Assembly: GCA_041946735.1 (NCBI GenBank)
Contig: JBHGAY010000036.1
Location: forward strand, 1 to 40,923
DNA length: 40,923 nt
From: Candidatus Eiseniibacteriota bacterium
GTDB taxonomy: Bacteria; Eisenbacteria; RBG-16-71-46; CAIMUX01; VGJL01
Direction: 5' to 3'
Positions 7,293 through 32,109 of the stretch are shown here, in pieces; the first letter of the stretch is position 1, and the number at the start of each line of letters is the position of its first letter. The notes under the pieces were generated by a model that searched no databases, had not been told where the DNA came from, and saw only the letters and a list, made by a program, of their open reading frames with translations. Position numbers and translations under genes: made by a program.

Positions 7293-10200
7293 AGAAGGCT
7301 CCTTGGGCGGCGGAGCACCGCTCGCAAGGCTTTTCCGATCTCCCTCACCCAGAGCACGCTGCTCGCCACCGCCGCGCAGACCGCCCAGTCTTCGAGGCGA
7401 AGCGGGGCTGTTTGGAACGCTGCCTGCAAGAAGGGAACGTGCACGACGGCGACCTGGCTCGCGACGGAGACGGCGAGCGCCGCCCAGAGCCATCGGTTGT
7501 GGAAGAAGCCACGGAAGGCGCTCCGCTCGTCGGAGCGCGCGTTGAAAACATTCCATACCTGGAACAGCATCAAGGTCGTGAACGCCATCGTCTGGGCGTA
7601 GCGCATCCCGAAATCCCCTGAGCCTCCAGCCGCTGTGCCCCGGGCGGCTGCGGCTCCGGCGCCGGCGCCCGCACCTCCTCCCAAGACGCCGCCGAGAAGC
7701 CCGCCCGGCAGCGCCGCGTCCAGCACCGCAAGCGTCCCGATGGCCATTACTGCGCCGACCAGGAAGATCCCGCGCCACATGCGAGGTGTGATCACTCGCT
7801 CGCCCGGCGGGCGCGGCGGCGCCGACATCAGTCCTCCGTAGACGGAGTCGACGCCGAGCGCGAGGGCGGGAAGGCCGTCCGTCACGAGGTTGATCCACAG
7901 GATCTGGGTCGCCAGCAGCGGCAGCACGAGGGCATCTCCTTCGGCGTGCAGGCCGATCCGTCGAGCGAGCAAAACGCCGAAGAACATCGTCATGACTTCG
8001 CCGATGTTCGACGATAGGAGGTAGCGCAGAAACTTGCGAATGTTCGCGAAGATGGCGCGGCCCTCCTCGACTGCGCCCACGATCGTGGCGAAGTTGTCGT
8101 CGGCGAGGATCATGTCCGCCGCTTCCTTCGACACGTCCGTCCCTGTGATCTCCATGGCGACGCCGATGTCGGCGGCCTTCAGGGCCGGCGCATCGTTGAC
8201 GCCGTCGCCGGTCATCGCGACGACCGCCCCTTGGCGTTGCAGCGCGCCGACGATGCGCAGCTTGTGCTCCGGATTGACGCGCGCGTACACGGACACCTCG
8301 CGCACGACGCGGTCGAGCTGCTCCTCGGGGAGCTTCTCCAGCTCGGCGCCGGTGACCGCCCGGTCTTTCGGGGCGTCGCCCCCGAGTTCTCCCGCGATTC
8401 CCAGCTCCGCCGCGATCACGGCCGCCGTCCGCGGATGGTCCCCGGTGATCATGATCGGGCGGATTCCGGCCCGCTTGGCCCGCACGACCGCGTCGCGCGC
8501 CTCCTCGCGCGGCGGGTCGATCATCCCGATCAGCCCGGCGAAGACCAGCTCGCGCTCGAGGCTCTCGTCGAGCGCGCCGGCCGCCGCGTTCCCGGCCCCC
8601 GTGTTCCCGGCCCGCGCGCTCCCGGCCCCCCCGACATCGTGCAGCTCCGGGTCGTACGGCATCGACCGAGCGGCGACGCCCAGCGTCCGCAGCGCTTCGC
8701 CTGCGAGCGACTCGTTGAGCCGCAGGATCTCCGCGCGTCGCTCGGCGGTGAGCGGCCGCGCTCCGTCGCCGTGGTACTCCGCGGTGCAGAGCGGCAGCAG
8801 GACGTCCGGCGCTCCCTTCGAGAAGACAAGGACGCGCTCCGACCGCTCCGTGTCGCGATGGATCGTCGTCATGCGCTTGCGCTCGGACGAGAATGGAAGC
8901 TCTCCGAGGCGCGGGAGCCGCGCGTCGAGAACGTGCTTCTCGAGGCCCGCCTTGCGAGCCGCGACGATCAGCGCGCCCTCGGTCGGGTCTCCCTGGACGG
9001 TCCATCGTCCGTCCTGCTCGCGGATCGTCGCGTTGTTCGCCCGGTCGCCCGCCGCGAGGGCACGCTCCAGCTCGATGCGCAGCGGTCCGTCGACCGTCCC
9101 CCCGCCTTCCCGGCGAACCTGGCCCGACGGCTCGTACCCGGGCCCCTCGAACGCCACCCGTCCGCTCGCCGTGGCGACGACACGCACCGTCATCTCGTTG
9201 CGCGTCAGCGTCCCCGTCTTGTCCGAGGCGATCACGCTTGCCGATCCGAGCGTCTCGACCGCCGCGAGCCGCCGCACGATCGCGTTGCGCCGCGCCATCC
9301 GCTGGACCCCGATCGAAAGCACCGCGGTCACGACTGCCGGCAGCCCTTCGGGAACGGCCGCGACCGCGAGGGCGACGCCGAGGATCAGGACCTCGAAGAT
9401 CGCCGAGGGTCCGGTCACCTGCTCGACGAGAAGAATCGTCGCGATCATCACGATCGCGATCCCGACGACGACGATGCCGAGGAGCTTGCCGGTGCGGTCC
9501 AGCTCCGCCTGGAGCGGGGTCGCTTCGTCCTTCGTCTCGCGCAGGAGGTTCGCGATGCGACCCATCTCGGTCGCCCGCCCCGTCGCCGTCACGATCGCGC
9601 GCGCACGCCCGTAGGTCGCGGTCGTGCCGCTGTAGATCATGTTCGAACGGTCGGCGAGGGGCGCCTCATCGGCGAGAGCCGCGGCATCCTTGGAGACCGG
9701 CAGGCTTTCGCCGGTCAGCGCCGCCTCGGCGCACTGGAGAGCGGCCGACTCGGCGATCCGTGCGTCGGCCGGGATCGTGTCTCCTTCCTCGACCACGATC
9801 ACGTCCCCCGGAACCAGCTCCGCCGCCGGGACGAGCCGCTTTTCGCCGTCTCGGATCGCCATCGCTTCGTCGGCCGTCAGCTCGCGCAACGCCGCGACCG
9901 CCGCCTCCGCGCGCGACTCCTGCACGTATCCCATCACCGCGTTCAGCAGCACGACGGCGAAGATCGCAAGCGCTTCGTACGGGAGCGTCGAGTCGCGCTC
10001 ATAGAGCCAGAGCGCCGCCGAGATCGCGGCGGCGACGAGCAAGAGGATGACGAGGACGTCCCGGAATTGCCCGAGGAAGCGAAGCCAGGCGGGAGTCCCG
10101 GCCTCGGACGGCAGCTCGTTGCGCCCGTAGCGTGCCAGCCGGGCAGCCGCCTCGGCGCTCGTCAGGCCGCGCCGCGCGTCCGTCGCAAACGCCGCGGCGA

Positions 10201-11343: not shown

Positions 11344-12465
11344 TCACCGGTGCGTCCCGATCGTGAAGCAGACCCCCTGAGCGCCGTCGCCGCCCACCTT
11401 GTCGAAAGATTCGAAGACGTGGTGGTAACGAGCCTCCAGCATGATCTCGAAGTCGAAGGTCCTCATACTGAGCAGGCCGAGGACCAGCTCGAGGCTCGGC
11501 GCGGTGCTAGACTGCTCCTCCGTCTCCGTGTAGGTGTAAGCGCTTCCGTTATAGGTGTGCCGCAGCTCCGTCGTCCGTTCGATACGGACGGAGTGCACGC
11601 CGAGGCCGCCACCGATGTAGGGACAGACGTCGCCCTTGCCGAGGATCTTCGAGACGACGATGTCGAGGATCGTCCAGTCGACGTTGCCGCCGCCGAACGT
11701 GAAGCCGAGCAGCGACGTGGTCTCCACGAAGAACGTCGGCTGCTCGTACTTGTAGGATGCCCGGAGGCTCGTCAAGCGATCCTCGCCCGCGTAGCTGTCC
11801 CCCGTCGGGAACAGGAACCCGGCGCGAAACCCGAGACCCGAGCGGCTGGAGCGGCGCAGCGGCTTGCGCGCCTCTTCCCGGATGACCGACTCGACCGTCG
11901 GCTGGTCGGAGTTCGGCCGGCCGGCCACCAATCCCTCGGCGAGGCGGCGGACGACGGTGTCCAGCTCCTCCTCGGAGATCGCGGAGAACTGCTCCCTGTA
12001 GAACGGAACGGTCTCTCCTGCCCGGATGGCACCGAGTCGGAAAATCACCTTGTCCCCGAGGCGGCTCAGCGAGCCGTAGACCGCCCGAGCGGCGGAATGT
12101 TCCGACGCGCGCCGTGCCGCGCATTCCGGCTCATCGCAGGCATCGGCGCTTGGGAGAAGCTCGCCGGCCATGGCGTCCCTCGCGATCACCCGCCATCCCC
12201 GAGAAGCGAGCTCGTCGGCCAGGAGATCGCGCGTGACGGTCGCCGTCGTGTCGCTGACCCCGATCATGCGCAGAGGCAGAACGAGCGTCGTCGCGGCGCC
12301 CTCGGCCTTCGCCGCCTCCTCCAGCGAGGCCGACGAGTTCGGCGAGGCCGGTGAGTTCGGCGAGGTCGACTGCGCCCGGCAGGGCGATGGCGCCTCCGCA
12401 AGGACAAGAACGCCGGCGAGCAGCAGGAGGCAACGAGGCGTTGCACGGTGACAAGGACGCAGCAT
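11344..12465 (-). CDS. Exported protein with TolB-N/CsgG-like N-domain and C-terminal beta-barrel-like domain
   Basis: Signal peptide LLLLAGVLVLA, then VLPLRMIGVSD..C..EC..AVYGSLSRLG. The C-terminus has amphipathic strands (PYIGGGLGVH, LEARYHHVF). Confidence 0.6.
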   Translation of the reverse strand: MLRPCHRATPRCLLLLAGVLVLAEAPSPCRAQSTSPNSPASPNSSASLEEAAKAEGAATTLVLPLRMIGVSDTTATVTRDLLADELASRGWRVIARDAMAGELLPSADACDEPECAARRASEHSAARAVYGSLSRLGDKVIFRLGAIRAGETVPFYREQFSAISEEELDTVVRRLAEGLVAGRPNSDQPTVESVIREEARKPLRRSSRSGLGFRAGFLFPTGDSYAGEDRLTSLRASYKYEQPTFFVETTSLLGFTFGGGNVDWTILDIVVSKILGKGDVCPYIGGGLGVHSVRIERTTELRHTYNGSAYTYTETEEQSSTAPSLELVLGLLSMRTFDFEIMLEARYHHVFESFDKVGGDGAQGVCFTIGTHR

Positions 12466-12828
12466 GGAAGTCCTTCCGATCTTGCGTCCTCGCGGATCGA
12501 GGGCGCGGCCGCCAGTCCCCGAAACGTGATAATTGTGATCCTGATACGGCGACGCCGGCAAGCGCTGAGCTACCCCGCCCGGGATCGAGACCGAGCCCGG
12601 GCCTCCCCCCCCCGGCCGCCCGGCGATCCAGCGAATTCCCTTGCCCCCTCCTTCCCCGCCGGCTACCGTTCGGTCAGTTGGTTCGCCGATGTCTGGCCTG
12701 CGCGGTTTCATTAGCTCGACGCTGCTTGGTCTCCATCGTCCTTCCTTCTGGACCCACCCAGGGTCCCTTTCCAAAGGATCCGGAGAGAAAGAAAAGGATC
12801 CGCTTTCCTTGATCAAAGGAGAATCACG

Positions 12829-13131
12829 ATGGGTTCCAAGCTGTACGTAGGCAATCTGAGCTTCGAGGTCGGCAACACGGAACTGGAGGAGATCTTCACT
12901 CCGTACGGTTCGGTCCGAAGCGCGCAGGTCATCATGGATCGCGACACGGGCAGGAGCAAGGGCTTCGGCTTCGTCGAGATGGGTGGAGACAGCGAGGCGG
13001 CCGCGGCAATCACGGCGCTGAACGGCCAGGAGTTCAAGGGCCGCGCCCTCACCGTCAACGAGGCGAAGCCGCGCGAGGATCGTGGCGGCGGCCGGTCCTA
13101 CGGTGGCGGAGGCTCCTCGCGCCGCTACTAG
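12829..13131 (+). CDS. RRM (RNP-1) RNA-binding protein with Gly-rich tail
   Basis: RNP2 KLYVGNLS, RNP1 RSKGFGFVEM, LTVNEAKPRE and a GGG tail; AAGGAG SD. Confidence 0.95.
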   Translation: MGSKLYVGNLSFEVGNTELEEIFTPYGSVRSAQVIMDRDTGRSKGFGFVEMGGDSEAAAAITALNGQEFKGRALTVNEAKPREDRGGGRSYGGGGSSRRY

Positions 13132-13189
13132 TCCGATAGTCCGATCTGAGCCGACGAACCGTATCCGGTTCGGCGCCAGCGACGCATCC

Positions 13190-13231
13190 AGGGGAGGGCA
13201 GCTTCGGCGGCCCTCCCCTCTCATTCTCTCC
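13190..13231 (+). terminator. Hairpin terminator between convergent RRM and radical SAM genes
   Basis: AGGGGAGGGC (13190-13199) pairs with GCCCTCCCCT (13210-13219) around a GC-TTCG-GC cap, followed by a pyrimidine tract. Confidence 0.6.
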
Positions 13232-13237
13232 CTCAGT

Positions 13238-14914
13238 TCAGGCGGAGAGCCTCGTGACGGTGACCGCCGCCCCGTCGGCAATTGCGGGCGCGCGCGCGGG
13301 GAAGTCCGCCGCCACTTCGGTGGTACCGGGCGCGTCCATCCGCCGGACGAGCCGCGCGTCCAGAAGGGCCGCGAACGGGCGGAGGTGGAGATAGAGCGCC
13401 GCCTGAGAGAAGACGACCCTCGCGGCGCGCGGGTTGTGCACCAGGCAGTCGCCGAGAGCACGCCAGAAGGCGCCCATCGCGTCCCGATCGAGGATGCCGA
13501 CCCGCCAGGTGATCCGGCCGAACGACCGCAGATCCCGTGGCAGCGAAGAAAGCGGCCGGCGGATCTTGTGTTCCCTCAGATCGAGCTGCCGAGCCAGGCG
13601 GCTCACGCGGGCGAAGAAGGCCCGCGGCTCGTAGATACGCTTCAGGACGGTCCGATAGTCCTCGATCATCTCGCGGCGCGGGCGAATGGTCGTGTAGTTC
13701 AACCCGGACGTGCACTGGTCCGAATCTTCCTCTCCTCGCGGACGATCGGATTCGGCGTGCAGCCTCCCCTCCGCATGGAGCCTGCGGAAGAGCCGCGTGT
13801 TGGGGAGGGCGTAGAGCAAGCCGACCATGCAGACCGGAATCGCCGCCTCCTCGATGCAGTGAATCATTTCCTCGGCGACCGGGCCTGTCTCCCCATCGAA
13901 GCCGATGATGAAACCGGCATTCACGAAAATCCCCGCCCTGTAAATCGTGCGAATGCTTTGAACGATGTCTCGTCGGACATTCTGGCGTTTGCCCGTGCTG
14001 ACCAGCGTCGCCGCGTCGGGCGTCTCGATTCCCACGAAGATCGCGAAGAAGTTCGCGCGCTTCATGAGAGCGAGAAGCTCGTCGTCCTCCGCGATGTTGA
14101 TGCTCGCCTCCGTGGAGAACTCGAACGGATAGCGGCGCTCCTCGAGCCAGCCGGCCAGGCGCCGGAGGAGGGGCTTCACCGCCTTGCGGTTGCCGATCAG
14201 ATTGTCGTCGACGAAGTCGACGTGGCCGCGATAGCCGAGGGCGTAGAGCGCCTCCAACTCGGCGATCATCTGATCCTCGGTCTTGACGCGCGGGGTGCGG
14301 CCGTTCAGCTCGATCACGTTGCAGAACTCGCAGGTGAACGGGCAGCCGCGAGAGATCTGGACTCCGACGTGCATGTAGTGGTCCAGCTTCAGGAGATCGA
14401 AGCGCGGCACGGGAGATTTCCGAATGTCGGGGAATTGCCGCGCTGCGAATTCCCCTCTCTCCATCCCCGCGCGCCACGCGCAGATGAAGTCGTCGATCAC
14501 CTCCTCGGCTTCGCCGAGAACCCGAAACTCGGCCTGTTCGTATACGTGGGGGCTCGCCGTCACGTCCGGACCGCCCACCGCGACGGGTACGCCATGCGCA
14601 TGCGCGATGGCTACCACGCGCAGCGCGTCGAGCTGCTGAGGCAGCATGCCGCCGGTCATCACGAGGTCGGCCCACGCGAGATCGGGCGCCTCGATCTCCT
14701 CGGTGTTTCGGTTCACCAGTCGGATCTGCCAGTCGCCGGGAAGGAGGGCCGCAACGGTGATCAGTCCCAGCGGCGCGGCGGAGTAACGGGCGCCGACGAC
14801 CTCGCAAGTCGCCTGGTAGTTCCAAAAGGAATGGGGACTGAAACGCGGATAGACCATGAGCACTCGGGGAAAACGGGAGCGCATGAGTTGGGTCTCGTTT
14901 GGGAAGGGCGCCAT
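13238..14914 (-). CDS. B12-binding domain radical SAM protein (DUF4070 C-terminus)
   Basis: B12-binding region PLGLITVAALLP..VAVGGP, then SRGCPFTCEFC (CxxxCxxC), FVDDNLIGN, IFVGIETP and AGFIIGFD. Start is 14914 or 14884. Confidence 0.9.
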   Translation of the reverse strand: MAPFPNETQLMRSRFPRVLMVYPRFSPHSFWNYQATCEVVGARYSAAPLGLITVAALLPGDWQIRLVNRNTEEIEAPDLAWADLVMTGGMLPQQLDALRVVAIAHAHGVPVAVGGPDVTASPHVYEQAEFRVLGEAEEVIDDFICAWRAGMERGEFAARQFPDIRKSPVPRFDLLKLDHYMHVGVQISRGCPFTCEFCNVIELNGRTPRVKTEDQMIAELEALYALGYRGHVDFVDDNLIGNRKAVKPLLRRLAGWLEERRYPFEFSTEASINIAEDDELLALMKRANFFAIFVGIETPDAATLVSTGKRQNVRRDIVQSIRTIYRAGIFVNAGFIIGFDGETGPVAEEMIHCIEEAAIPVCMVGLLYALPNTRLFRRLHAEGRLHAESDRPRGEEDSDQCTSGLNYTTIRPRREMIEDYRTVLKRIYEPRAFFARVSRLARQLDLREHKIRRPLSSLPRDLRSFGRITWRVGILDRDAMGAFWRALGDCLVHNPRAARVVFSQAALYLHLRPFAALLDARLVRRMDAPGTTEVAADFPARAPAIADGAAVTVTRLSA

Positions 14915-15313
14915 GTGATGTGGACGGGCTCTTGAAAGACGGCGGCGGGGGGGACGAAGCTCCGCGCGCCATCGGGCGCCCATTGATAGGATCCGTTCGC
15001 TCGTGGTGACGGTAGGCTCCGGGGAGACGCCTGTCCAGGAACATCCGGAAGGGAGAGCAAGTGGGGCGGCCGTTCCGCCGACGTCGCCTGGCGCGCCCTC
15101 GGCCGGCGCGCGAACCGAGATTCCAGCGTCGAAAGCTCGGGCCGATTTCACGCCGTCGGGCGAGATCGTCGTGTATAGTGGACAAAGGTTGACCACCGAT
15201 CGACTCGACGCAGTCGGTGTCCGACCTGATCGACACCGCCATCCAGGTTCCGAACGCCGCAATCCGGGTGGGCAACGACCTCCGGCGCCAACAGCAAAGG
15301 TCAGGTGATCCAT

Positions 15314-15766
15314 ATGGCGATCAAGCAGGGGGACTCCGTCACCAACTCCAAATGCTCGCAATGGGGCACCGGTGTCGTTCTCTCCATCGGCCCCAGCTCC
15401 GCGGAGGTCCGGTTTCCTACGGTGGGGCCGAAGCGGCTTCTCAAGGACGTTCTCCTTCCTTCCTCCGAGCGGGCGACCGTTCTCGACAAGAAGGGCAAGA
15501 AGGTCGACCCGGAGTTCCAGGCCCGACTCAAGGAGCTGGTCGAGGCCTTTGCGACAGCCGCGAACCACGAGATGGTCGAGAGCATGAAGGTGACGATCTA
15601 CGAAGCGTTCCTGGGCAGTGGCACGGGGAAGGCCACGATCAAGAGGCAGCTCGCTCAGTGGATCCGCACGAATCCCCACGGGCGCCAGCATGAGGCTCAC
15701 GCGGGCGCGCAGCTGCTCTACGACTTCCTCTTCCCGGAAAGTCCCCAACCGAAGAAGGATCGATAG
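15314..15766 (+). CDS. Hypothetical protein with N-terminal SH3/Tudor-like domain
   Basis: GDSVT..WGTGVVLSI....AEVRFPTVGPKRL resembles the PcrA/UvrD C-terminal Tudor-like or DUF3553 motif. AGGTGA SD; codon usage looks coding. Confidence 0.65.
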   Translation: MAIKQGDSVTNSKCSQWGTGVVLSIGPSSAEVRFPTVGPKRLLKDVLLPSSERATVLDKKGKKVDPEFQARLKELVEAFATAANHEMVESMKVTIYEAFLGSGTGKATIKRQLAQWIRTNPHGRQHEAHAGAQLLYDFLFPESPQPKKDR

Positions 15767-19534: not shown

Positions 19535-20290
19535 TCAGAACGTCACGCCGATGCCGAGGTTCAGACCCGCCAGGGTGAAGTCCATCTCGTCGTCGTTCTT
19601 GTCGCTGTCGAGCTGCCAGGCCACGCGTCGATAGCCGAGGCGGGCGGCCACGTTCCTTAGGAAGCGATACTGGATCTGGGGCTGCATCTCGTAAACGAGC
19701 TTCGAGTCGCCCCCTCCACCGATGGCTGCCAGCAAGTTCAGGCGTAGACCTTGGATCTTCGAGGGGAAGATCGGAATGCCCGCCCGCATCGCGAACATGG
19801 GATCCACGATGTCGCTCGTCTTGCTGTAGTCCGTCGGATCGCCGTACACGACGAGGTCGTTCTCGGCGCGCAGGTAGCGCAGAGTCAGCAGCAGGTCGTA
19901 CGTCTGCCCCTCCATCCACCCGTCGATCTGATATCCCGCCCCGATCTCGGTCAGGAACATGTCCGATTCCATCTCGCCGCCTTCCGGACGGTCCTTCACG
20001 TCCAGGGCATCGGTGCTCAGCCCGAAGTAGTCGAACTGCGTGCGGCAGACCCAACGCTCGTATTGCACGGTCCCGATCACGCCGCCCGCGAACTGGACGT
20101 AGTCGAAGAGATCGCCCGCCGACTTGTCGAAGTCGGTCTCCTGCCCGCCGACCGTCACGGTCCCCTCGATCCCGGCGATCCAGGCGCATGGCGTGATCTC
20201 CACCTGCCACCCTTGCGGATCCGCCGCCTGGGCGATGGATACTGCGCCGAGCAGCGCCGCGATGCACGCCGCCGCGATTCTCGTGTTCAT
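19535..20290 (-). CDS. Outer-membrane beta-barrel protein
   Basis: Signal peptide ending AQA; WQVEITP.AW..GIEG N-motif; amphipathic strands; terminal GLNLGIGVTF. Alternative start at 20299. Confidence 0.8.
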   Translation of the reverse strand: MNTRIAAACIAALLGAVSIAQAADPQGWQVEITPCAWIAGIEGTVTVGGQETDFDKSAGDLFDYVQFAGGVIGTVQYERWVCRTQFDYFGLSTDALDVKDRPEGGEMESDMFLTEIGAGYQIDGWMEGQTYDLLLTLRYLRAENDLVVYGDPTDYSKTSDIVDPMFAMRAGIPIFPSKIQGLRLNLLAAIGGGGDSKLVYEMQPQIQYRFLRNVAARLGYRRVAWQLDSDKNDDEMDFTLAGLNLGIGVTF

Positions 20291-20380
20291 TGCGACCATC
20301 CTTTCCTCGTCGTGCCGCCCCTCGGGGAGGACGCCTGCGCCCGCCGCAGCAGCGCTACGACCAGCCCGAGCGGTCGCCCG

Positions 20381-21664
20381 TCAGAACGTCTCCTGGAAGC
20401 CGGCCCAAATCCCGCGAGAGCCGTTCTTGCCGAAGCCGACATCGAGACACAGGTTCGATTTGGCCTGCTTGTCGAGGAGAATGCGAAGGCCAGCGCCACC
20501 TCCCGTCGCGAAGGAGTCGAAGAGCTTCTCCCCGGTCATCTCCGTCGCGAACGTCTCTGTGTTGACGAATCCGACGGCGCCGAGCAGCCCATTGCGCGTG
20601 ATCGTCACGCGGTACTCGATCTCTCCATACGCCATCTTGTCGCCGCGATAGCGGCTCGCGTCGTAACCGCGTCCGGCGCGCCCGCGCGGAGTCGCCCCGG
20701 TCGTCGGCAGGTCGAAATAGGGCGCGGCGCCGCCGGTAACGAGGTCGCCGTAGAGCCAGAGTCCCAGTCGGTGGCGCGCGTTCGCATCGAGGGCGTGATA
20801 GGTGCGAAAGTCCGCATACAGCTCCTGCCAGTCCGAGCTGCCACCCAGGAAGTCCTTGAAGAACATGCGGTAGTTCGCGCTCGCGAACCAGCCGCGAGAA
20901 GCGTTCACGGGATGGTCCCGCCGGTCGATCAGGAGATTGGCGCTCGCGCCCGCCGCCGTCTGGTTCCTCATCCCGAGTCCATGCTCACGGCTGTACCGGA
21001 CGAAGGCGGAGTTGTCCCATACGGGCGCCGGCACGTCCATCGACTCGATGCTCGTGCGCGTCACGTACTGGCAGCCGAGCCCCGTGAAGAGGTCGGGAAG
21101 GATCTGCCGGTAGACCAGGAGCAGGACTTTCGTCATGTAGAGGTCCACGCCCATCTTGCTCGCATCGGGAGAATCGGTGCCGAGGTCGTAGGTGGATTGC
21201 GGATATTTCGCCCACGTGGGATTCGCCTGGATGAACCAGCGATTGCGATCGGAATAGTAATCGAGCTTGGAGCTCACTCCGATCTGCTTCTCGAGCGAGA
21301 CCGTGCCGCCCGCCTGCAGTGTGGAGGGGAAGGTCGTTCCAGGATCCCCGTGGAAGATCGAGGTCAGGAAGCCCAGGCCGAAAATCACGCTCGTGACCGG
21401 ATCGTAGTTGAGGAAGGGGGTCACGAGGATCGTCCGGTGGCCTCCGACCGTCACGGTGTCTTTAAGAGACGTCTCCTTGCCCCGCAGCTTCCGGAGGACA
21501 TCCATCGCGTCCGTTTGTGGTGGCACGGGCGACACTCGCGCGGCTTCGGTTTGCGGCTCGGATTCGGCTCGCGCGTCGCCTCCGCGTGCGCCCTCGGCCC
21601 GTGAGACCGGGTGTGCGAGAACGATCGTGGTGAGCAGCGCGAGGCAGGTGCGGCAACCCCGCAT
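20381..21664 (-). CDS. BamA/TamA (Omp85) family barrel protein without evident POTRA domains
   Basis: Signal peptide; DRRDHPVNASRGW; GRGY...RYRG (VRGF/Y-like loop); GGGAGLR; terminal GFQETF. Confidence 0.85.
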   Translation of the reverse strand: MRGCRTCLALLTTIVLAHPVSRAEGARGGDARAESEPQTEAARVSPVPPQTDAMDVLRKLRGKETSLKDTVTVGGHRTILVTPFLNYDPVTSVIFGLGFLTSIFHGDPGTTFPSTLQAGGTVSLEKQIGVSSKLDYYSDRNRWFIQANPTWAKYPQSTYDLGTDSPDASKMGVDLYMTKVLLLVYRQILPDLFTGLGCQYVTRTSIESMDVPAPVWDNSAFVRYSREHGLGMRNQTAAGASANLLIDRRDHPVNASRGWFASANYRMFFKDFLGGSSDWQELYADFRTYHALDANARHRLGLWLYGDLVTGGAAPYFDLPTTGATPRGRAGRGYDASRYRGDKMAYGEIEYRVTITRNGLLGAVGFVNTETFATEMTGEKLFDSFATGGGAGLRILLDKQAKSNLCLDVGFGKNGSRGIWAGFQETF

Positions 21665-21673
21665 GTTCCTCTC

Positions 21674-22153
21674 CTATTCCGGCTCGACTTCGACCAGCGG
21701 GATGAGGTCCGCGGCCTCGTAGCGGAGCGTCGCGTCGATCTTGTTCTCGATCTGGAAGAAACGGGTGACCGACTTTTGCGGGAGAATCTCCCGGAACTCG
21801 TCGACCCATTCGGCCTTGATCTTCAGCTCGTCTCTCTGAACGGCAAGGAAGTCGTCGAGCAGGCTGGCCGCCTGTTCCTCCGAGAGGTTCTCGGCGTCCT
21901 TCGCGTACTCCAGCATGATGTCGATCAGGCGATCCCCCTGCTTCTGGATCTCCTCTCGGTACTCGCGATACAGCGGCCAGAATGCAGCCGCCTCCTCCTC
22001 GGTGAGCGGCAGGTTCGCCGCGACGATTGCCTGGCGGTCGCTCTGAAGCTGCGCTCGCTCCGTCGCCAGCTCGCTCCGGATTTGTGCGCACGCGGGAGAG
22101 AAGACGAACAACGTGAGCCCGATGGCCAGCAAGGCACACACGATCTTGCCCAT
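21674..22153 (-). CDS. Exported helical protein (Spy/CpxP-like pattern)
   Basis: Signal peptide ending PACA-Q; IVAANLPLTEEEAAAFWPLYREY..ILPQKSVTRFFQIENKI. Confidence 0.75.
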   Translation of the reverse strand: MGKIVCALLAIGLTLFVFSPACAQIRSELATERAQLQSDRQAIVAANLPLTEEEAAAFWPLYREYREEIQKQGDRLIDIMLEYAKDAENLSEEQAASLLDDFLAVQRDELKIKAEWVDEFREILPQKSVTRFFQIENKIDATLRYEAADLIPLVEVEPE

Positions 22154-22247
22154 TTTGTGACCCCCTGCTTCTTGGATGGGCGGCGGCGCGGACGCGGCCG
22201 GGTCCGGACGGAAGGGCCGAGAGGGCGCGCGGCCGGATCCCGAGCGA

Positions 22248-23267
22248 TCAGAAACCGATGCCGAAGTTCAAACCGATCGACTGCCCCTGGAACCGATCTT
22301 CGGCCGAGAACTCGAACAGGAAACGAAGGCTCGCAGAGAGGCGCAGAGGCGTGTAGATCGCGCCGGCCTGGAATCCCGCTCCGTGCACCTGATCCTTCAC
22401 CTCGGCATTTCGAGCGTCGTCGCCGCTGTCTTCGCTGATCTGCCAGCTGTCATAGCCGGCGATGCCCACGTCGCCGATCAGGGTGTTGTCCTTCTTGAGC
22501 GGCAGGTACTCGCTCACGCCCCAGTTGAAGGCGAGACTCTGCCCCGGCGTCAGATCGAAGTCCTGTTTCTCGGAGTGGACTTCCCAGGTCAGCCCGCCCA
22601 CAACTGCCATCCGCCTATCAGGCCAGGGGAACCAGGCGCCCGCTCCCTGGAACTGGTGCGTCCAGAACCCGAGGCCGATGTTCTCCCGCGACTCGGCGGT
22701 GAATGTTCCGACGTCGGGAATCGTCACTTCCTCGGTGTCGTATTTGCCGACGGGAAGGTACACCCCGTAGCCGAGCGCGACCGCCAAGTGGGGCTTGTTC
22801 CATCCGAGCCAGAGCGGCTGGACGAACATGTCGCTCAGCCCGAACTGAGATTCTTCTCCACTTCGGGCCGTGCCCGTGGCTGTCGTCAGCGATGCGCCGA
22901 TGCTGGTGTTGGCCAGCGGGACGAGAGCGTAAGCCCCGTATCGTGCCCCGAGGATTTTGTAGTCCGAAGACCACATGGCACCGGGAGCGACGATGTACAG
23001 ATCGAGATCCACGTCGAGGTCGACCGGAACGACCGTTGTCGGATCGACGGGCACGGCGATCTGCTTGATCTCGTCGCCGTTCTTGTCGTTGATCCGATCG
23101 CTCATGTACGAGTAGGTGTAGACGACGCCGTAGATCCCCGGGTCGGGCAGGATGAGATCGCGAATGCTGGGCAGGCCCGGGCTATAATGTCCAACTTCGC
23201 TCGCGTGCGCGGCAAGAGGGGCAGCGACCGCGAGCATGACGAGCGCAATGCTCCGAATCGTCTTCAT
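22248..23267 (-). CDS. SphA / phenol-MetA-pathway family outer-membrane channel
   Basis: GGAGG SD; signal peptide ending AHA; LPDPGIY, GLSDMFVQPLWLGW, YLPVGKYD, NIGLGFW; terminal F. Confidence 0.85.
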   Translation of the reverse strand: MKTIRSIALVMLAVAAPLAAHASEVGHYSPGLPSIRDLILPDPGIYGVVYTYSYMSDRINDKNGDEIKQIAVPVDPTTVVPVDLDVDLDLYIVAPGAMWSSDYKILGARYGAYALVPLANTSIGASLTTATGTARSGEESQFGLSDMFVQPLWLGWNKPHLAVALGYGVYLPVGKYDTEEVTIPDVGTFTAESRENIGLGFWTHQFQGAGAWFPWPDRRMAVVGGLTWEVHSEKQDFDLTPGQSLAFNWGVSEYLPLKKDNTLIGDVGIAGYDSWQISEDSGDDARNAEVKDQVHGAGFQAGAIYTPLRLSASLRFLFEFSAEDRFQGQSIGLNFGIGF

Positions 23268-23440
23268 GCTCTGACCTCCTCCGAAATGCGATTGGTATCG
23301 CGACGGGCATCTTACGGAATCTTCATGCGCACGGCAATCGGCAAAAGGGCCCCCTCCATTAGCCCGCCATCGTGGGATCCGATGACCCGATCGAGTCGGT
23401 GAGTCCCTCCGCGAACCGCACCATTCTCGTGTCATTCCTG

Positions 23441-23454
23441 CAAAGTTCACTTTG
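23441..23454. promoter_or_regulatory. Palindromic candidate operator in the divergent intergenic region
   Basis: CAAAGT-TC-ACTTTG is a perfect inverted repeat in an AT-rich patch between the divergent operons. Confidence 0.35.
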
Positions 23455-23508
23455 TTTGCGCCAATGGATAGCTTACTGAGGAATAGTGAAAAGGCTCTCG
23501 CGCCGTGC

Positions 23509-23537
23509 TTGACGTCGGAATGACGCAGCCGTAACTT
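23509..23537 (+). promoter_or_regulatory. Candidate sigma70 promoter of the sulfatase operon
   Basis: TTGACG (23509-23514), 17 nt, TAACTT (23532-23537). Confidence 0.45.
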
Positions 23538-23780
23538 CGTCGCCGGCGGTCCTATTCCGCCGGCCCACTTTCCTGTTGGTGGGAGGTGCGAAGGGTGAAT
23601 CGCTTGCCACTCGTACGTCAGAGTCCTCGCAAGCTGGAAAGGCTGCCCCTGTTCGAGCGCTTCATGCATCCCGGGCTCAGGCCGATCCACCCCGCCCAAC
23701 TCGCCGGATAAAGAGGAGAGGTCCTCCCGGTTGGCCGCGCATCGCGCGGACCGAGCGGACGGCGTGAAAAAGGAGGGATC

Positions 23781-24698
23781 ATGAGACGGACGCGCCTTTC
23801 GAGGCGGAGGGTGGTGAGGCTGTCCCGCGCGGGAGCTTGGGGTGCGGTCGGGTCAGCGCTCGCGGCAGGAGGACCCCTCGTGGCCGCCGCCACCCTGGTC
23901 GCGGCATTTGCTAGCTGCGATCCGGCCTCAGCCCAAGACAGTGGATCGTCCACGGCGGCCGAGCAGCAGAAGGTGGCCAAGGATCTGAGCAATCCCGTGG
24001 CCGACATGGCGAGCATCCCGCTTCAGTTCAACTGGGAGAGCGGCGTCGGCGACCCGCAGGATCTCCGGTTGATCCTGAACATCCAGCCCGTGGTTCCGTT
24101 CTCTCTCAACTCCAATTGGGTCCTGGTCGGGCGGTTCATCATGCCGTACATGAACCAGCCGGCCGGGCTGATGGGAGAAACGGCCTCGGGCACCGGGGAC
24201 ATCATCGCCTCTGCGTTCTTCACACCAAAGAGGTCGCCGGTCGTCTGTGGTTTCGGGCCCGTGTTCGGCCTCCCCACCACCACAAATCCCCTTCTCGGTT
24301 CGGGCAAGTGGATGATGGGGCCGACTGCCGTCGTCTTGAAGCAAAAAGGTCCATTGTCGATCGGGTTCCTTGGGAACCATCTCTGGTCGATCTCCGACAC
24401 GGGCGATATCGAGCGGAAGGACGTGAGCCAGACATTCCTGCAGCCGTTCCTGACCTTCACGACAAGGACGGCGTGGACCTTCGGAATCAACACCGAGAGC
24501 ACCTATGACTGGAAGGCCCCGGACGGAGAAGAGTGGACGGTCCCGATTCACGCGTGGGTGAGCAAGGTCACACGGATGGGGCCGTTCCCGTTCTCGGTCG
24601 CTCTCGGCGGGGGCTACTTCGTCGAGTCCCCGGATATGGGAGCGGACTGGAAGCTCCGAACGGCGTTCACGCTCATTCTCCCGAAGGGCAAGAGCTAG
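23781..24698 (+). CDS. Putative outer-membrane barrel/transporter (family often mislabelled 'neuromedin U') found in sulfatase clusters
   Basis: AAGGAGG SD; long leader; AKDLSNPVADMASIPLQFN, LNIQPVVPFSLN, GSGKW..GPTAVVL, QPFL, YDW..WTVP. Confidence 0.85.
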   Translation: MRRTRLSRRRVVRLSRAGAWGAVGSALAAGGPLVAAATLVAAFASCDPASAQDSGSSTAAEQQKVAKDLSNPVADMASIPLQFNWESGVGDPQDLRLILNIQPVVPFSLNSNWVLVGRFIMPYMNQPAGLMGETASGTGDIIASAFFTPKRSPVVCGFGPVFGLPTTTNPLLGSGKWMMGPTAVVLKQKGPLSIGFLGNHLWSISDTGDIERKDVSQTFLQPFLTFTTRTAWTFGINTESTYDWKAPDGEEWTVPIHAWVSKVTRMGPFPFSVALGGGYFVESPDMGADWKLRTAFTLILPKGKS

Positions 24699-24737
24699 GC
24701 GAATCGAGACGCGCTCGATTGGGATCGGAGGCGGATT

Positions 24738-26015
24738 GTGGCACCTCAGAGGATGTATCGGGGAAGGCCGGTCGTGCGAATCCACGCCATGGTCAAGCCT
24801 ATCGGCGCGACGTGCAACCTCGACTGCAAGTACTGCTATTACCTGAGCAAGCAGAATCTCCTCGGTCCCCAGGCCGGCGCCCACATCTCCGACGAGATGC
24901 TCGAGACGTTCATTCGCCAGTACATCGAGGGCCAGAACTACAAGGAGATCATCTTCTCTTGGCAGGGGGGCGAGCCGACCCTGCTTGGCCTGGACTTCTT
25001 CCGCAAGGTCGTCGCGCTGGAGAAGAAGTACTGCCCCCCGCACGTGCGTTGCGAGAACGACCTGCAGACCAACGGCACGCTGCTCGACGAGCAGTGGTGC
25101 GAGTTCCTGCGCGACAACGGCTTCCTCGTCGGCCTGAGCATGGACGGGCCGCGCGCGCTCCACGATGCCAATCGCAAGGACAAGGCCGGCGGCGGGTCGT
25201 TCGACCGGGTGTTCCGCGCGTCGTCGCTCCTCCGTCGGTTCGGAGTGCGGTTCGCCACCCTCTCTTGCATCAACAGGCTGACCGCGAAGTATCCCGCCGA
25301 GGTGTATCGCTTCCTCCGCGACGAGGTCGGATCGAAGCGGATGCAGTTCATCCCGGTCGTGGAGCCGAAGGGGTTCGAGCGGACGGCGCCGCAATACTGG
25401 CCTCCGGAGCGGGTGCCGGTCGTAGGCAGCGCGGCGGCGCGGCCCGGCACGGCGGACTCGGTCGTCGAGGAGTGGTCTGTGGACCCCGACGATTGGGGCG
25501 ACTTCCTCTGCGAGGTGTTCGACATCTGGCACGCGAACGATCTCGGCAAGGTCTACGTCCACTACTTCGACGCCGCCGTCGAGGCGTGGATGGGGCGAGT
25601 CAATCCGCTATGCAGCCTGGGGCCGATGTGCGGCAAGGGCCTGGCTCTCGAGCGAGACGGAAGCGTCTATGCGTGCGACCACTATGTCTATCCGGAGTAC
25701 CGGCTCGGGAACATCGGCGTCACCCCGCTCGCCGACCTGGCCTTTACCCCGCAACAGGAGGCCTTCGGGAAGAACAAGGAAGCCTCGCTGCCGTGGGCGT
25801 GTCGAGAATGCTCCTATGAGTTCGCGTGCTTCGGGGAATGCCCGAAGAACCGCTTCGTCATGACGGCGAGCGGCGAGCGGGGCCTGAACTATCTCTGCCC
25901 AGGCTGGAAGCGATTCTGGGCCCACATCGACGAACCGATCCAGAAGATCGTCCGCAGTCTCGGCCACACGCCGGTAAAGCAGCTCCTCTACTCCACGGAA
26001 TCGGAGACGGAATGA
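24738..26015 (+). CDS. Anaerobic sulfatase-maturating enzyme (anSME; radical SAM/SPASM, AtsB/AslB/ChuR family)
   Basis: KPIGATCNLDCKYCYY, WQGGEP, LQTNGTLL and GLSMDG; SPASM cysteines C..C..DGSVYACDHYV..CREC...CFGECPK..YLC. Confidence 0.95.
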   Translation: MAPQRMYRGRPVVRIHAMVKPIGATCNLDCKYCYYLSKQNLLGPQAGAHISDEMLETFIRQYIEGQNYKEIIFSWQGGEPTLLGLDFFRKVVALEKKYCPPHVRCENDLQTNGTLLDEQWCEFLRDNGFLVGLSMDGPRALHDANRKDKAGGGSFDRVFRASSLLRRFGVRFATLSCINRLTAKYPAEVYRFLRDEVGSKRMQFIPVVEPKGFERTAPQYWPPERVPVVGSAAARPGTADSVVEEWSVDPDDWGDFLCEVFDIWHANDLGKVYVHYFDAAVEAWMGRVNPLCSLGPMCGKGLALERDGSVYACDHYVYPEYRLGNIGVTPLADLAFTPQQEAFGKNKEASLPWACRECSYEFACFGECPKNRFVMTASGERGLNYLCPGWKRFWAHIDEPIQKIVRSLGHTPVKQLLYSTESETE

Positions 26016-26809
26016 AACACGACCTCAAAGATGCGTCCGATGGCCGTACGGCGCTTCGTGTGACGGCCGACTGGCCGGAAGTGCGAACGGACTACGAGGA
26101 CGTGGTCTCGGAATACATGCGCATGCCGGTGCCCGGCTTTCGGGCCGGAAGGGCGCCGCGCCATGTCATCGAGGCTCGTTATCGCCGCGACATCCGCGAG
26201 GACTTCATCGCCCGATGCGGACGCCGCCTCGCCCACCAGGTGTTGAGCGAGCGGAATCTCCACACGGCGGGCGGCATGGAGGTGGTGGAGAGCCACGCCG
26301 AGTCAGGGCAGGAGTTCTCGTTCACCGCCGAATGCGTCGTCCTCCCCCGCCTGGAGCTGCCCGACTATCGAAACGTTCCGCTCGCGGGGGCGTCCGATGA
26401 GGAGCGCCGCGACGAGATGAACGCCTGGCTGCTCCGAAACACCGCATGGAACCCGCCCGATCCGCTCGTTCGCAAAGAGTGCGAACGAGACGATCCTTCG
26501 AGCGCCGAGCCTGGGAGCGATGCGTGGCGGAGGGCAGAGGACCGCGTGAAGCTGATGTGGATCCTCGAGCAGATCGCCGAGGCCGAAGGGATCGAGTCGG
26601 AGCCGCGCGAGGTGGATCTCCGCATCGAGAAAATCGCCCACGAGACCAATGTCGACCCTCTCCAGCTACGCCACGAGCTCGGTGAGGAAGGGGTCGCCCG
26701 GCTGGAGACGCTGTTGCAGGCCGAGGAGACCCTGAGCTACCTGCTCACACTGGCCGACGCGCAGAAGAGCCGCGATGCGCGAAACGGCGGAACGGGAAAG
26801 GGGGGCTAG
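26012..26809 (+). CDS. Trigger-factor-like chaperone lacking the FKBP PPIase domain
   Basis: ATG at 26012 overlaps the anSME stop (ATGA). Ribosome-binding signature VPGFRAGRAP and FSFTAECVVLPRLELPDY lead almost directly to the C-domain AEDRVKLMWILEQIAEAEGI. 265 aa. Confidence 0.85.
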   Translation: MKHDLKDASDGRTALRVTADWPEVRTDYEDVVSEYMRMPVPGFRAGRAPRHVIEARYRRDIREDFIARCGRRLAHQVLSERNLHTAGGMEVVESHAESGQEFSFTAECVVLPRLELPDYRNVPLAGASDEERRDEMNAWLLRNTAWNPPDPLVRKECERDDPSSAEPGSDAWRRAEDRVKLMWILEQIAEAEGIESEPREVDLRIEKIAHETNVDPLQLRHELGEEGVARLETLLQAEETLSYLLTLADAQKSRDARNGGTGKGG

Positions 26810-26886
26810 GAATTGCGGGACCGTCCGTCTTGCACGGTTGGAACGTCCGAGTCGCAGGGAGAGGGGAAAGCCAATAGGAGGTCGCG

Positions 26887-28542
26887 ATGAGAAGGAAGGT
26901 CAGGAACCAGCGCAGGGCCAGGATCTCTCGTGCCGGAGCCTGGGCGGCTGTCGGCTCCGTGCTCGCCGTCGGAGCCCTCGTTATCAGCAATCCTGCGCGA
27001 GCGCAAACCGCCGCGCCGTCGACACCGGGAACGGATAGGCCAAACATCCTCGTCATCTTCGCCGATGATGTCGGCTGGTTCAACATCAGCGCCTACAACA
27101 TGGGGATGATGGGGTCGCGCACGCCGAACATCGATCGGATCGCCCACGAAGGGGCATTGTTCACCGACTACTACGGGCAGCAGAGCTGCACGGCGGGCCG
27201 GGCCGCGTTCATCACCGGACAGCATCCATTCCGGACCGGGCTGCTCAAGGTCGGGCTCCCTGGCGCCGCGCTGGGCTTGCAGGCCGGCGATCCGACGGTC
27301 GCCGATCTCCTGAAGAACCAGGGATACATGACCGGCCAGTTCGGCAAGAACCACCTGGGCGATCGCAACGAGTTCCTGCCGACGGTCCACGGCTTCGATG
27401 AGTTCTTCGGGAATCTCTATCACTTGAACGCCGAAGAGGAGCCGGAGGACCCGCAATACCCGAAGATGCCGGAGTTCAAGCAGCACTTCGGTCCGCGAGG
27501 CGCGCTGAAGACGTTCGCGACGGATCGTGACGATCCCACGATCGACCCCCGCTTCGGAAAGGTGGGGAAGCAGACGATCGAGGACACCGGTCCCATCACA
27601 CGCAAGCGGATGGAGACCGTGGAAGGGGAGTTCCTGACCGCCTCGCTCGCGTTCATCGACAAAGCCGTCCAGGCACACAAGCCGTTCTTCATCTGGCACA
27701 ACCCGACCCGCATGCACGTCTGGACCAGGCTGAGCCCGAAGTACGACGGCGTGACTCCCTACGGCCTCTACGCGGATGGAATGACAGAGCTCGACGACTG
27801 CGTCGGCGTGTTGCTCAAGAAGCTCGACGACCTGGGGATCGCGAACAACACGATCGTCGTCTTCTCGACCGACAACGGGGCGGAGAAGGCCTCGTGGCCG
27901 GATGGCGGCGCGTCGCCTTTCCGGGGAGAGAAGGGATCGACATGGGAAGGCGGCATGCGGGTGCCGTGCATGGTCCGCTGGCCGGGGGTGGTCAAGCCGG
28001 GCACCGTGATCAACGAGATCATGTCGCACGAGGACTGGACCCCGACATTCCTCGCCGCGGCCGGTGATCCCAACGTCAAGGAAAAGCTCCTGAAGGGGCA
28101 CACCTCGAACGGCAAGCTGTTCAAGGTCCATCTCGACGGCTACGACCAGCGTGCGCTGCTTGCCGGGACGGGGCCGAGCGGACGCCAGGAGATCTTCTAC
28201 TTCGATGACAACGGGAGTTTGAACGCCGTACGCATCCGCGATTGGAAGGCTCACTTCGCGATTTGCGGCAACTGGTACACGGGCGGCGTGGCAACGGTCC
28301 AGAACTTCCCCAAGCTGGTCAACCTTCGCATGGACCCGTTCGAGGACCACATCGAATTCACGGAGTCCCCAATGTACTACCGCTGGGCGGGGGACAAGCT
28401 GTGGGCGATGGTGCCGATGCAGGCGGTCGTCGGCCAGTTCCTGCAGACATTCAAGGAGTATCCGCAGAGGCAGCGGTCGGCCAGCTTCAACATCGACCAG
28501 GTGCTCGCGCAGCTGCAGCAAGGCACCGGTGGCGGCAGATGA
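26887..28542 (+). CDS. Exported Cys-type arylsulfatase (formylglycine-dependent), paralogue 1
   Basis: PNILVIFADDVG, TPNIDRIA, SCTAGRAAFITG (CxAxR), FGKNHLG, HGFDEFFG, STDNG, GEKGSTWEGG. Confidence 0.95.
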   Translation: MRRKVRNQRRARISRAGAWAAVGSVLAVGALVISNPARAQTAAPSTPGTDRPNILVIFADDVGWFNISAYNMGMMGSRTPNIDRIAHEGALFTDYYGQQSCTAGRAAFITGQHPFRTGLLKVGLPGAALGLQAGDPTVADLLKNQGYMTGQFGKNHLGDRNEFLPTVHGFDEFFGNLYHLNAEEEPEDPQYPKMPEFKQHFGPRGALKTFATDRDDPTIDPRFGKVGKQTIEDTGPITRKRMETVEGEFLTASLAFIDKAVQAHKPFFIWHNPTRMHVWTRLSPKYDGVTPYGLYADGMTELDDCVGVLLKKLDDLGIANNTIVVFSTDNGAEKASWPDGGASPFRGEKGSTWEGGMRVPCMVRWPGVVKPGTVINEIMSHEDWTPTFLAAAGDPNVKEKLLKGHTSNGKLFKVHLDGYDQRALLAGTGPSGRQEIFYFDDNGSLNAVRIRDWKAHFAICGNWYTGGVATVQNFPKLVNLRMDPFEDHIEFTESPMYYRWAGDKLWAMVPMQAVVGQFLQTFKEYPQRQRSASFNIDQVLAQLQQGTGGGR

Positions 28543-28657
28543 CCTGGGGCCGAGCCGGGTAGAGGAAATCCATGGATCCGCGGCCCCGCCCGATCCTCTT
28601 CCGGGAAGAGGCGGGGGCCGCGGAGATGGAAACGCGACATGGAAGGAGGGGCCGCGC

Positions 28658-30322
<1,665 letters not shown>

Positions 30323-30408
30323 CCTTCGGCCCCCTCCGTCACCGGTCGCGCGCGGCGCGCGGCCGGTGACAGGGGCGGGCAATCGCTTGGGAAGAAAGGG
30401 GGCGACCG

Positions 30409-31404
30409 GTGCGAGGAACACTTCTCGTCTGCCTGGTCTGCCTGCTCGCCGTTCTTGCGGTCACGTCCAGCGCCTTCGGGATCAACGCGCTGCCTTCGTG
30501 GAACGACCGGGCTTCAAAGGAGGCGATCGTCCAGTTCGTTGAGAAGACGACTCGTGAGGGGTCGCCGGACTTCGTCCCGCTGGATGAACGGATCGCGGTG
30601 TTCGACAACGACGGCACGTTGTGGGCCGAGCAGCCGATGTACTTCCAGTTCCTGTTCGCGTTGGATCGAGTGAAGTCGCTCGCGCCGCAGCATCCGGAGT
30701 GGCAGACGGACGAGCCGTTCGCTTCCCTGCTCAAGGGGGACGTCAGAGCCGCGCTCGCAGGCGGCGAGCACGATGTCGGCAAGCTGCTCATGGCGAGCCA
30801 CGCCGGCATGACCACGGACGAGTTCGAGAAGATCGTGAGCGATTGGATCGCGACCGCCAAGCATCCGAGAACCGGGCGTCTTCTGACAGAGATGGTCTAC
30901 CAGCCGATGCTCGAGCTTCTCGACTACCTGCGGGCAAACGGCTACAAGACGTACATCGTGTCCGGAGGTGGAGTCGAATTCCTGCGGCCGTGGGCCGAGA
31001 GGGTTTATGGCGTGCCCCCCGAGCAGATCGTGGGCAGCCGCATCAAGACACAGTACGAGATGCGCAACAGCAAGCCGGTTCTCGTCCGCATGCCCGACAT
31101 CGACTTCGTCGACGATGGACCCGGCAAGCCGGTCGGCATTGAGACGATCATCGGCCGCCGACCGATCGCGGCGTTCGGTAACTCCGACGGTGACCTGCAA
31201 ATGCTCGAGTGGACCGCGGCCGGTCCCGGCCCTTTCTTCTGCCTGTACGTTCACCATACGGACGCGGAGAGGGAGTGGGCCTACGACCGCGTCTCGCCGA
31301 TCGGGCGCCTCGATAAAGGTCTCGATGAAGCGCTCGCCAAAGGCTGGACGGTCGTGGACATGAAGACCGACTGGAAGAACGTCTTCGCGTTCGAGCAGCG
31401 CTGA
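30409..31404 (+). CDS. Exported HAD-family hydrolase (acid-phosphatase-like)
   Basis: Signal peptide; IAVFDNDGTLW (DxDGT), YIVSGGG, GKP, AFGNSDGDLQML. Confidence 0.92.
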   Translation: MRGTLLVCLVCLLAVLAVTSSAFGINALPSWNDRASKEAIVQFVEKTTREGSPDFVPLDERIAVFDNDGTLWAEQPMYFQFLFALDRVKSLAPQHPEWQTDEPFASLLKGDVRAALAGGEHDVGKLLMASHAGMTTDEFEKIVSDWIATAKHPRTGRLLTEMVYQPMLELLDYLRANGYKTYIVSGGGVEFLRPWAERVYGVPPEQIVGSRIKTQYEMRNSKPVLVRMPDIDFVDDGPGKPVGIETIIGRRPIAAFGNSDGDLQMLEWTAAGPGPFFCLYVHHTDAEREWAYDRVSPIGRLDKGLDEALAKGWTVVDMKTDWKNVFAFEQR

Positions 31405-31456
31405 TCGGAAGCAGGTGGGCGAGGCGAGAAGGACTCCGGCGCGTCAGCCGGGATCC

Positions 31457-31807
31457 TCAGCCTGCCGCATGGTGCAGCTCAAGGTCCTCGATCTGGATCA
31501 TGATCGCGGTCGCGCCTTCGTCGCTCCCCTTCTCGTGCGATTCCCCTTTGTCGAAGACCGCCCCCTGGCCGGCGAGGAGATCGACGCGGAGGCCGTCGCC
31601 ACCGGTCGCCCAGCCGGAGCCCTCGACGATGAGAAAGAGCTGCGGGAAACCGGCGACGTGCCGGCCGATTCGGCCGCCGGGCGCGAAGCGCACGCGATAG
31701 ACGCGCGTCGCGCCGCGACCGCTCGCGATCGGCACAGCGGTTGCCGCGATGCTCTCGTAGTCCTCGATCGCGCGCTCGCGCGCATCGCCGAAGCTCACGA
31801 TGCGCAT
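31457..31807 (-). CDS. Cupin domain protein
   Basis: FAPGGRIGRHVAGFPQLFLIVEGSGW...GQGAVFDKGESHEKGS. Confidence 0.8.
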   Translation of the reverse strand: MRIVSFGDARERAIEDYESIAATAVPIASGRGATRVYRVRFAPGGRIGRHVAGFPQLFLIVEGSGWATGGDGLRVDLLAGQGAVFDKGESHEKGSDEGATAIMIQIEDLELHHAAG

Positions 31808-32109
31808 GGCGTCTCGCTCGATCGACCAGCCCGGCAAGGTGATGCGGTCACGGAAGAGCATCCTACCGGTTCGGCGGTCCGTCCGGGAGACATGTCGTCC
31901 GCCCGACCTTCCCCGCCGCTTGCCCGTTCTCTGATGCTATGATCGTTCGGTCTTGCGTCTCGTAACGTCCGGGCAGGTTTTCCGAACTCGGGTTGCCTGG
32001 ACCTGGCGCGTGGCCGGGTCACCCGTGATCACGCAGCCCTCCCAGGCACGCGGGATGCGGGCGGCCATCCACCGGAATCGCTCGGGTACCAAGGGGGGCA
32101 AGCGAAGGA

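Follow-up and report, generated by a model that had tools for sequence, protein, structure and literature searches.

A compact second trigger factor encoded between a sulfatase maturase and two arylsulfatases in a Candidatus Eiseniibacteriota genome

Results

The window analyzed in this study is a stretch of 40,923 nucleotides from the genome of a Candidatus Eiseniibacteriota bacterium, and it carries on its forward strand a run of genes that begins with a 305-aa protein with a leader (positions 23781–24698), which has no Pfam match and whose homologues recur in related cassettes. The next gene (24738–26015) encodes an anaerobic sulfatase maturase (anSME) of 425 aa from a GTG start, which matched TIGR03942 at 453.3 bits (cut-off 349.45) and contains the radical SAM domain PF04055 and the SPASM domain PF13186. 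The stop codon of the anSME gene overlaps the start codon of the following gene as ATGA (26012–26015), and this gene, which has GGAG 9–12 nt upstream of its ATG, encodes a 265-aa short trigger factor (sTF; 26012–26809). Two arylsulfatases follow, both with PF00884 above its cut-off and both of the Cys type, with the C/S-x-P/A-x-R motif present as CTAGR: sulfatase 1 (26887–28542), which has an N-terminal leader, and sulfatase 2 (28658–30322), for which ATG 28658 is the likely start. Thus, the gene overlap and the position of sTF directly before two sulfatases were both as given in a preliminary description of this DNA. A HAD-family hydrolase (30409–31404), identified by Pfam and regularly present in this sulfatase cassette, comes next. 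Divergent genes on the reverse strand (19535–23267) encode, by Pfam, a MetA-pathway-type transporter (22248–23267), a 159-aa protein, an Omp85-family protein, and a beta-barrel protein; homologues of the transporter and the beta-barrel protein also occur in related cassettes. Apart from sulfatases 1 and 2, the 4.9-Mb genome gave no PF00884 match, and tblastn found no second anSME of the same type in it. No sigma-70-type promoter was detected between positions 23000 and 32000, where terminator-like sites were fewer than in shuffled sequences.

Additional features were observed around the cassette. The GC content of positions 20001–32000 is 0.63–0.65, compared to 0.68 for the genome, which fits an acquired cassette. 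The low-GC start of the contig (186–5469) gave weak methyltransferase-like (MmeI) and RAMA/GIY-YIG matches and is possibly a restriction-type island, and a 705-aa open reading frame with no Pfam match (11344–13461, reverse strand) adjoins a B12-binding radical SAM gene with DUF4070 (13238–15748, reverse strand). On contigs C1, C7, C13, C34, and C56 of G000, five long-frame loci match the FGE-sulfatase domain PF03781.

To describe sTF itself, its domains were compared with profiles and structures of trigger factor. Residues 1–125 matched Trigger_N at 67.6 bits (cut-off 22.2), residues 163–235 matched Trigger_C at 34 bits (cut-off 22.7) over profile positions 78–151 of 162 only, and no FKBP family was found in Pfam at E ≤ 0.01; the protein therefore consists of an N domain (approximately residues 1–125) followed by the distal part of the C domain, in agreement with its AlphaFold model and with alignment. 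Residues 42–49 read GFRAGRAP (26135–26158), the predicted ribosome-binding signature of the form GFRxGxxP. When aligned with the trigger factor of its own genome, sTF has no counterpart to residues ~130–286 and 316–328, and this pattern was unchanged when E. coli trigger factor was used for comparison. Through this deletion, sTF has lost the PPIase domain together with the beginning of the C domain and the tip of its first arm; this arm is shortened, and the complete two-armed C-terminal chaperone domain is absent. The AlphaFold model had a pLDDT of 95.9 and its best structural matches were trigger factors; the N domain aligned with 1oms at Z 12.2 (rmsd 3.2 over 115 residues), and the whole fold aligned with E. 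coli (1w26) and T. maritima (3gu0) trigger factor at Z 12.6–13.2 (rmsd 5.6–7.4 over 236–243 residues). Trigger factor and sTF share by sequence the N domain, the GFRxGxxP loop, and the distal C domain; however, sTF is ~170 residues shorter, has no FKBP domain, is not located beside clpPX, and accompanied a full trigger factor in every genome that was checked. Thus, sTF resembles trigger factor but falls outside TIGR00115 in lacking the PPIase domain and the full C domain and in its score (95.7, under the curated cut-off of 180.2). The housekeeping gene, a 434-aa tig followed by clpP and clpX open reading frames (the latter two named from sequence, not by HMM), is located on a separate contig, C4. 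The preliminary description had given a 265-aa trigger factor paralogue with the GFRxGxxP motif, a shortened C domain, and no FKBP domain, and had called for confirmation of a canonical tig-clpPX locus elsewhere; the profiles and the second locus agree with this, although the missing part is larger than the FKBP domain alone. Together with the selection on the family described below, these data show that sTF is an intact, selected second trigger factor in this genome. Its docking to the ribosome is predicted from the GFRxGxxP motif, and its N and C domains suggest a putative holdase activity.

The short form is not limited to the window. There were 16 close relatives of sTF at 49–55% identity and many more distant ones, and 94 of the 296 collected proteins were full-length short forms of 229–291 aa (median 254 aa). 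In a tree with 61 full trigger factors, all 35 sampled short forms fell in one clade (support 0.999), and the short forms have in common the one deletion described above. The GFRxGxxP motif is kept in 79 of the 94 short forms and in 140 of 149 full-length trigger factors; furthermore, W21, Y28, R178, L181, R204, and E238 are conserved only in the short forms, where they occur in 89–97% of a family-wide sample. A full trigger factor was also present in all nine sTF-carrying genomes that were checked. These results show that the short forms are one family of compact second trigger factors with a single origin, in which the ribosome-binding loop is retained and the PPIase domain and a portion of the C domain are gone. 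A search for longer or fused forms among 8,000 scored candidates gave ten proteins of 513–566 aa, all composed of trigger factor domains only, an outcome that is weak evidence.

Selection on the family was measured by a simple Nei-Gojobori count. The dN/dS of sTF was 0.24–0.43 in 10 unsaturated pairs, the five pairs with L040 being saturated; the degenerate copy with a dN/dS near 1 that the preliminary description had considered is at odds with these values and with the 94 full-length members. sTF nevertheless evolves faster than anSME (50–58% versus 73–76% identity). In G590, two copies (L038 350–1087 and L043 4181–4591) are 97% identical over 136 codons with a dN/dS of 0.08, and the second copy runs off the end of its contig, so that the pair could be an assembly split. 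Two unlinked copies may be decaying: one in G277 (L042 7230–8024) has an internal TAG stop, and one in G713 (L045 8159–8944) has lost the ribosome-binding motif.

The distribution of the short form is patchy. Named members come from Lentisphaerae, Victivallales, Acidobacteriota, and Bacteroidota, and the nearest look-alikes in the ESM Atlas form two clusters of 79 and 149 members. One of 206 genomes in the phylum of the window carries sTF. In the class to which G061 belongs, 7 of 401 genomes carry it, and in its phylum 3 of 401 do; both of these latter counts come from scoring no more than six candidates per genome. No short form was found in 60 relatives of the window's genome or in viral contigs, the plasmids contained two partial matches only (one annotated tig), and no RNA holder was listed. 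Genomes around G421, G310, G233, and G237 (81, 81, 61, and 61, overlapping the earlier samples) yielded no new carrier. Altogether, the single clade, the common deletion, the purifying selection, and the patchy spread indicate that the short form is a real, mobile, and selected family and not a decaying copy.

The genomic context of sTF was obtained for 13 loci that span 31–58% identity to the query, most of the 94 family proteins being outside that set. anSME is encoded directly upstream of sTF in 6 of the 13 (the window, L004, L005, L006, L037, and L040), with the ATGA overlap in all of these except L040. At a further locus (L007) the contig begins inside the sTF gene, and a sulfatase lies two genes further on; including this locus, 7 of 13 sTF genes are found in the cluster of an exported enzyme that is matured post-translationally, and six are not. 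The remaining six loci, from five genomes, have no anSME adjoining sTF, although one of these (L038) shows only 349 nt upstream. anSME is encoded elsewhere in four of these five genomes, a count made with a query different from that of the 401-genome survey and thus not comparable with it as an enrichment. In L037 (G310), a further ATGA overlap (8827–8830) joins the stop codon of sTF to the start codon of the sulfatase, chaining three genes, and in L006 the gene after sTF encodes a transporter, not a sulfatase. A short trigger factor unlinked to anSME in G233 (L041 6121–6879) is located directly upstream, on the same strand, of tgt-, yajC-, and secDF-like genes (named from sequence), a placement that might point to a function in protein export.

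Considered from the side of the maturase, the association is narrow. At E ≤ 1e-60, anSME was found in 136 of 401 genomes of one class sample and the pair with sTF in only three of these, indicating that anSME generally needs no sTF; of 33 anSME loci scanned directly, including their 1.5-kb flanks, two contained sTF. The three anSMEs most similar to that of the window (68–76%) are exactly those with sTF adjacent, and in a 34-sequence tree the five linked anSMEs form one clade (support 0.998) that includes the window's enzyme and in which G421 is basal, as it is among the linked sTFs. With all linked anSMEs in one clade, the linkage may be a single event. In a 17-sequence tree, four of the five unlinked short forms diverge before the linked ones, and a single form lacking the motif is placed within the linked group, both with moderate support. 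The same sulfatase family also adjoins anSME without sTF at six loci (L058, L067, L068, L071, L099, and L100). The cassettes of G310 and G279 match on both flanks at 73–91% nucleotide identity; however, G279 has ~120 nt where G310 has 2,100 nt with anSME and sTF, and no second Trigger_N locus was found in G279. The second-family sulfatase (L037 11942, L094, and L096 1249) is Ser-type (SPTR) in G310 and G279 and Cys-type (CSPTR) in G061.

The adjacency of the two genes, their joint presence or absence, and the congruent position of G421 indicate that anSME and sTF behave as a single unit that has been inherited jointly for a long time. In the few loci available, one sTF lineage is tied to one anSME clade and travels with it as a two-gene unit in a mobile arylsulfatase cassette. 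The association with sulfatase loci that the preliminary description predicted was accordingly found in part: it is seen at the six loci with anSME upstream, but not at the six without an adjoining anSME, nor in most anSME-bearing genomes.

The leaders of both sulfatases in the window share the motif WAAVGSVLA, at 26941–26967 in sulfatase 1 (E 1.4e-5) and at 28715–28741 in sulfatase 2 (E 5.1e-6). These values come from a profile built exclusively from eight leaders of other genomes, which ranked the two sulfatases first among 39,964 open reading frames; a weak copy at 23838, in the open reading frame at 23781, ranked fourth (E 1.4) and is not significant alone. The motif sits in the hydrophobic part of the leaders, and it is conserved chiefly at the first and second positions of its codons. 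A loose version of the pattern occurs three times in the six frames of the 4.9-Mb genome, each time in the sTF cassette. Across genomes, the motif was present in sulfatase leaders at all five linked loci with a visible sulfatase start (the window, L004, L007, L037, and L040), on two sulfatase families that are ~24% alike, and it was scattered over a tree of 13 mature sulfatases, not tracking the phylogeny of the enzymes. For example, a G549 sulfatase whose mature part is 78% identical to sulfatase 2 has a different leader and an anSME without sTF.

The corresponding DNA pattern was found in none of the five genomes with unlinked sTF and in 10 of 201 class genomes, eight of which have no sTF; these eight comprise the sTF-less cassette of G279, a loose match in a twin-arginine-type sulfatase leader (G350), and six unrelated or non-leader matches. 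The motif was also considered as a tag specific to sTF, an idea weakened by G279, which keeps the motif without sTF, and by Aureibacter, which has a partial motif without sTF. Furthermore, sTF is fully confounded with the anSME clade, which leaves anSME on its own as a potential reader of the motif. WAAVGSVLA may be a recognition element for the anSME and sTF module, a suggestion that we make with reserve. The sulfatases of L058, L067, and L068, which have anSME and no sTF, carry another conserved leader, roughly RLLxTLGLAGG; leader types may therefore mark separate cassette lineages.

Discussion

Two findings of this work are firm: the short trigger factor family exists, and it is partially tied to anSME. 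A role for sTF dedicated to sulfatase maturation, as put forward in the preliminary description, is plausible for the linked lineage, in which an intact, selected second trigger factor follows anSME and is present or absent together with it; such a role cannot hold for the whole family, given the 6 of 13 loci without anSME and the 3 of 136 anSME-bearing genomes with the pair. We tentatively favor the interpretation that one anSME lineage recruited sTF as a supplementary holdase for sulfatase maturation. Formylglycine has to be formed before a sulfatase folds and exits the cytoplasm. In its most likely role, sTF would be a holdase for the newly synthesized sulfatase precursors of the cassette that are destined for export; located close to or at the ribosome exit, it would delay their folding and export until anSME converts the buried target residue (Cys or Ser) into formylglycine. 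The conserved leader motif may serve as the recognition element of the anSME and sTF module. The maturase AtsB of Klebsiella is reportedly dependent on the signal peptide of its substrate. As a holdase of this kind, sTF would be an efficiency aid for one lineage and not a general requirement of anSME. A more specific form of this proposal, in which a miniature trigger factor docks on the ribosome, reads WAAVGSVLA in the signal peptide of emerging sulfatase chains, and retains these chains for its partner anSME, such that formylglycine is installed during translation and before export, appears doubtful at present.

It is possible, though we consider it somewhat unlikely, that sTF is a general supplementary chaperone for folding or export that rides behind one anSME lineage, the linkage reflecting inheritance. 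The six unlinked copies in varied contexts, one of them just upstream of the tgt-yajC-secDF-like genes, are consistent with this, as are the family-specific residues retained across the whole-family sample, the patchy spread within the window's phylum and the other class, and the confinement of the linked anSMEs to a single clade that may reflect one event. However, the pair is still adjacent although sTF has diverged to 31–39% identity, the overlap is kept in five of six linked loci, and both genes are missing together in G279.

That anSME itself is the client of sTF, which would assist the folding or solubility of this iron-sulfur enzyme with only indirect benefit to the sulfatases, seems improbable. 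The unit gained or lost is anSME with sTF and not sTF with a sulfatase, a transporter takes the place of the sulfatase after sTF in L006, and synthesis of anSME and sTF would be coupled through the gene overlap; on the other hand, the nearest anSMEs outside the clade (53–59% identity) have no adjoining sTF, and the unlinked sTF copies would be left unexplained. A prediction of the anSME and sTF complex scored 0.00 in two runs, which is uninformative either way.

It is considerably harder to maintain that sTF has little holdase activity of its own and occupies the trigger factor site of the ribosome, displacing the housekeeping protein and rerouting nascent chains. In sTF, a large part of the client-binding cradle has been cut out of a protein whose N domain and motif are intact, and surplus trigger factor with an intact N domain and ribosome-binding motif has been described as harmful (PMC11559001); this is opposed by the strong conservation of family-specific residues in the remaining C domain. 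Lastly, decay of a tig duplicate, to which the faster evolution of sTF relative to anSME, the internal stop in G277, and the lost motif in G713 could point, is already largely refuted for the window's copy by the deletion common to the family, its 94 full-length members, the confident structural model, and the low dN/dS values, including that of the G590 pair.

Among known systems, PceT/RdhT is a precedent for a dedicated trigger factor. PceT reportedly has no ribosome-binding domain and keeps its PPIase domain; sTF has the N domain and, if this architecture of PceT is right, would be its mirror image. In organohalide respirers, PceT/RdhT is a trigger factor-type chaperone that is encoded with its client, binds the client's signal peptide, and is dedicated to its maturation, the client being a Tat-exported dehalogenase, unlike the sulfatases proposed for sTF (PMC8905343, PMC10624902). 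The preliminary description knew of no accessory factor of this kind, which agrees with our search as far as sulfatases are concerned but must be qualified by the example of PceT/RdhT. A further analogy is offered by the SecB-like chaperone of toxin-antitoxin-chaperone systems (Rv1957), described as a generic chaperone copy specialized for a neighboring client (PMC4257090); its fold and client are unrelated to those of sTF. The gene upstream of sTF belongs with the anSME/AtsB maturases, scoring above the TIGR03942 cut-off, and in passages on these enzymes one anSME is reported to act on many sulfatases and no accessory factor is named (PMC6388578).

Extra trigger factors have been surveyed previously, and that study reports second homologues, similar to sTF, beside a full trigger factor and with divided functions, and a PPIase activity that seems non-essential for chaperone activity (PMC11559001). 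In 367 of 390 multi-copy genomes of that survey, the ribosome-binding motif is found in only one copy, whereas the sTF family keeps the motif and is an exception to the pattern. Its supplement includes two 296-aa second copies with the motif, from Chromatocurvus and Kineobactrum, and the main text makes no mention of sulfatases. Our literature search, with most subscription papers outside its scope, returned no description of the short trigger factor family, members of which the PMC11559001 supplement may list, and no chaperone for sulfatase maturation.

Altogether, these natural trigger factors of ~250 aa, which have a ribosome-binding loop and occur beside a full trigger factor, show a minimal trigger factor. 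Were the tag-reading form of the proposal true, bacterial sulfatase maturation would gain its first accessory factor, and sTF would be a ribosome-binding trigger factor that is client-specific and escapes the reported one-copy rule. anSME, sTF, and a tagged sulfatase form a one-operon set that makes the timing of formylglycine formation in bacteria directly testable in E. coli and could improve recombinant sulfatase production.
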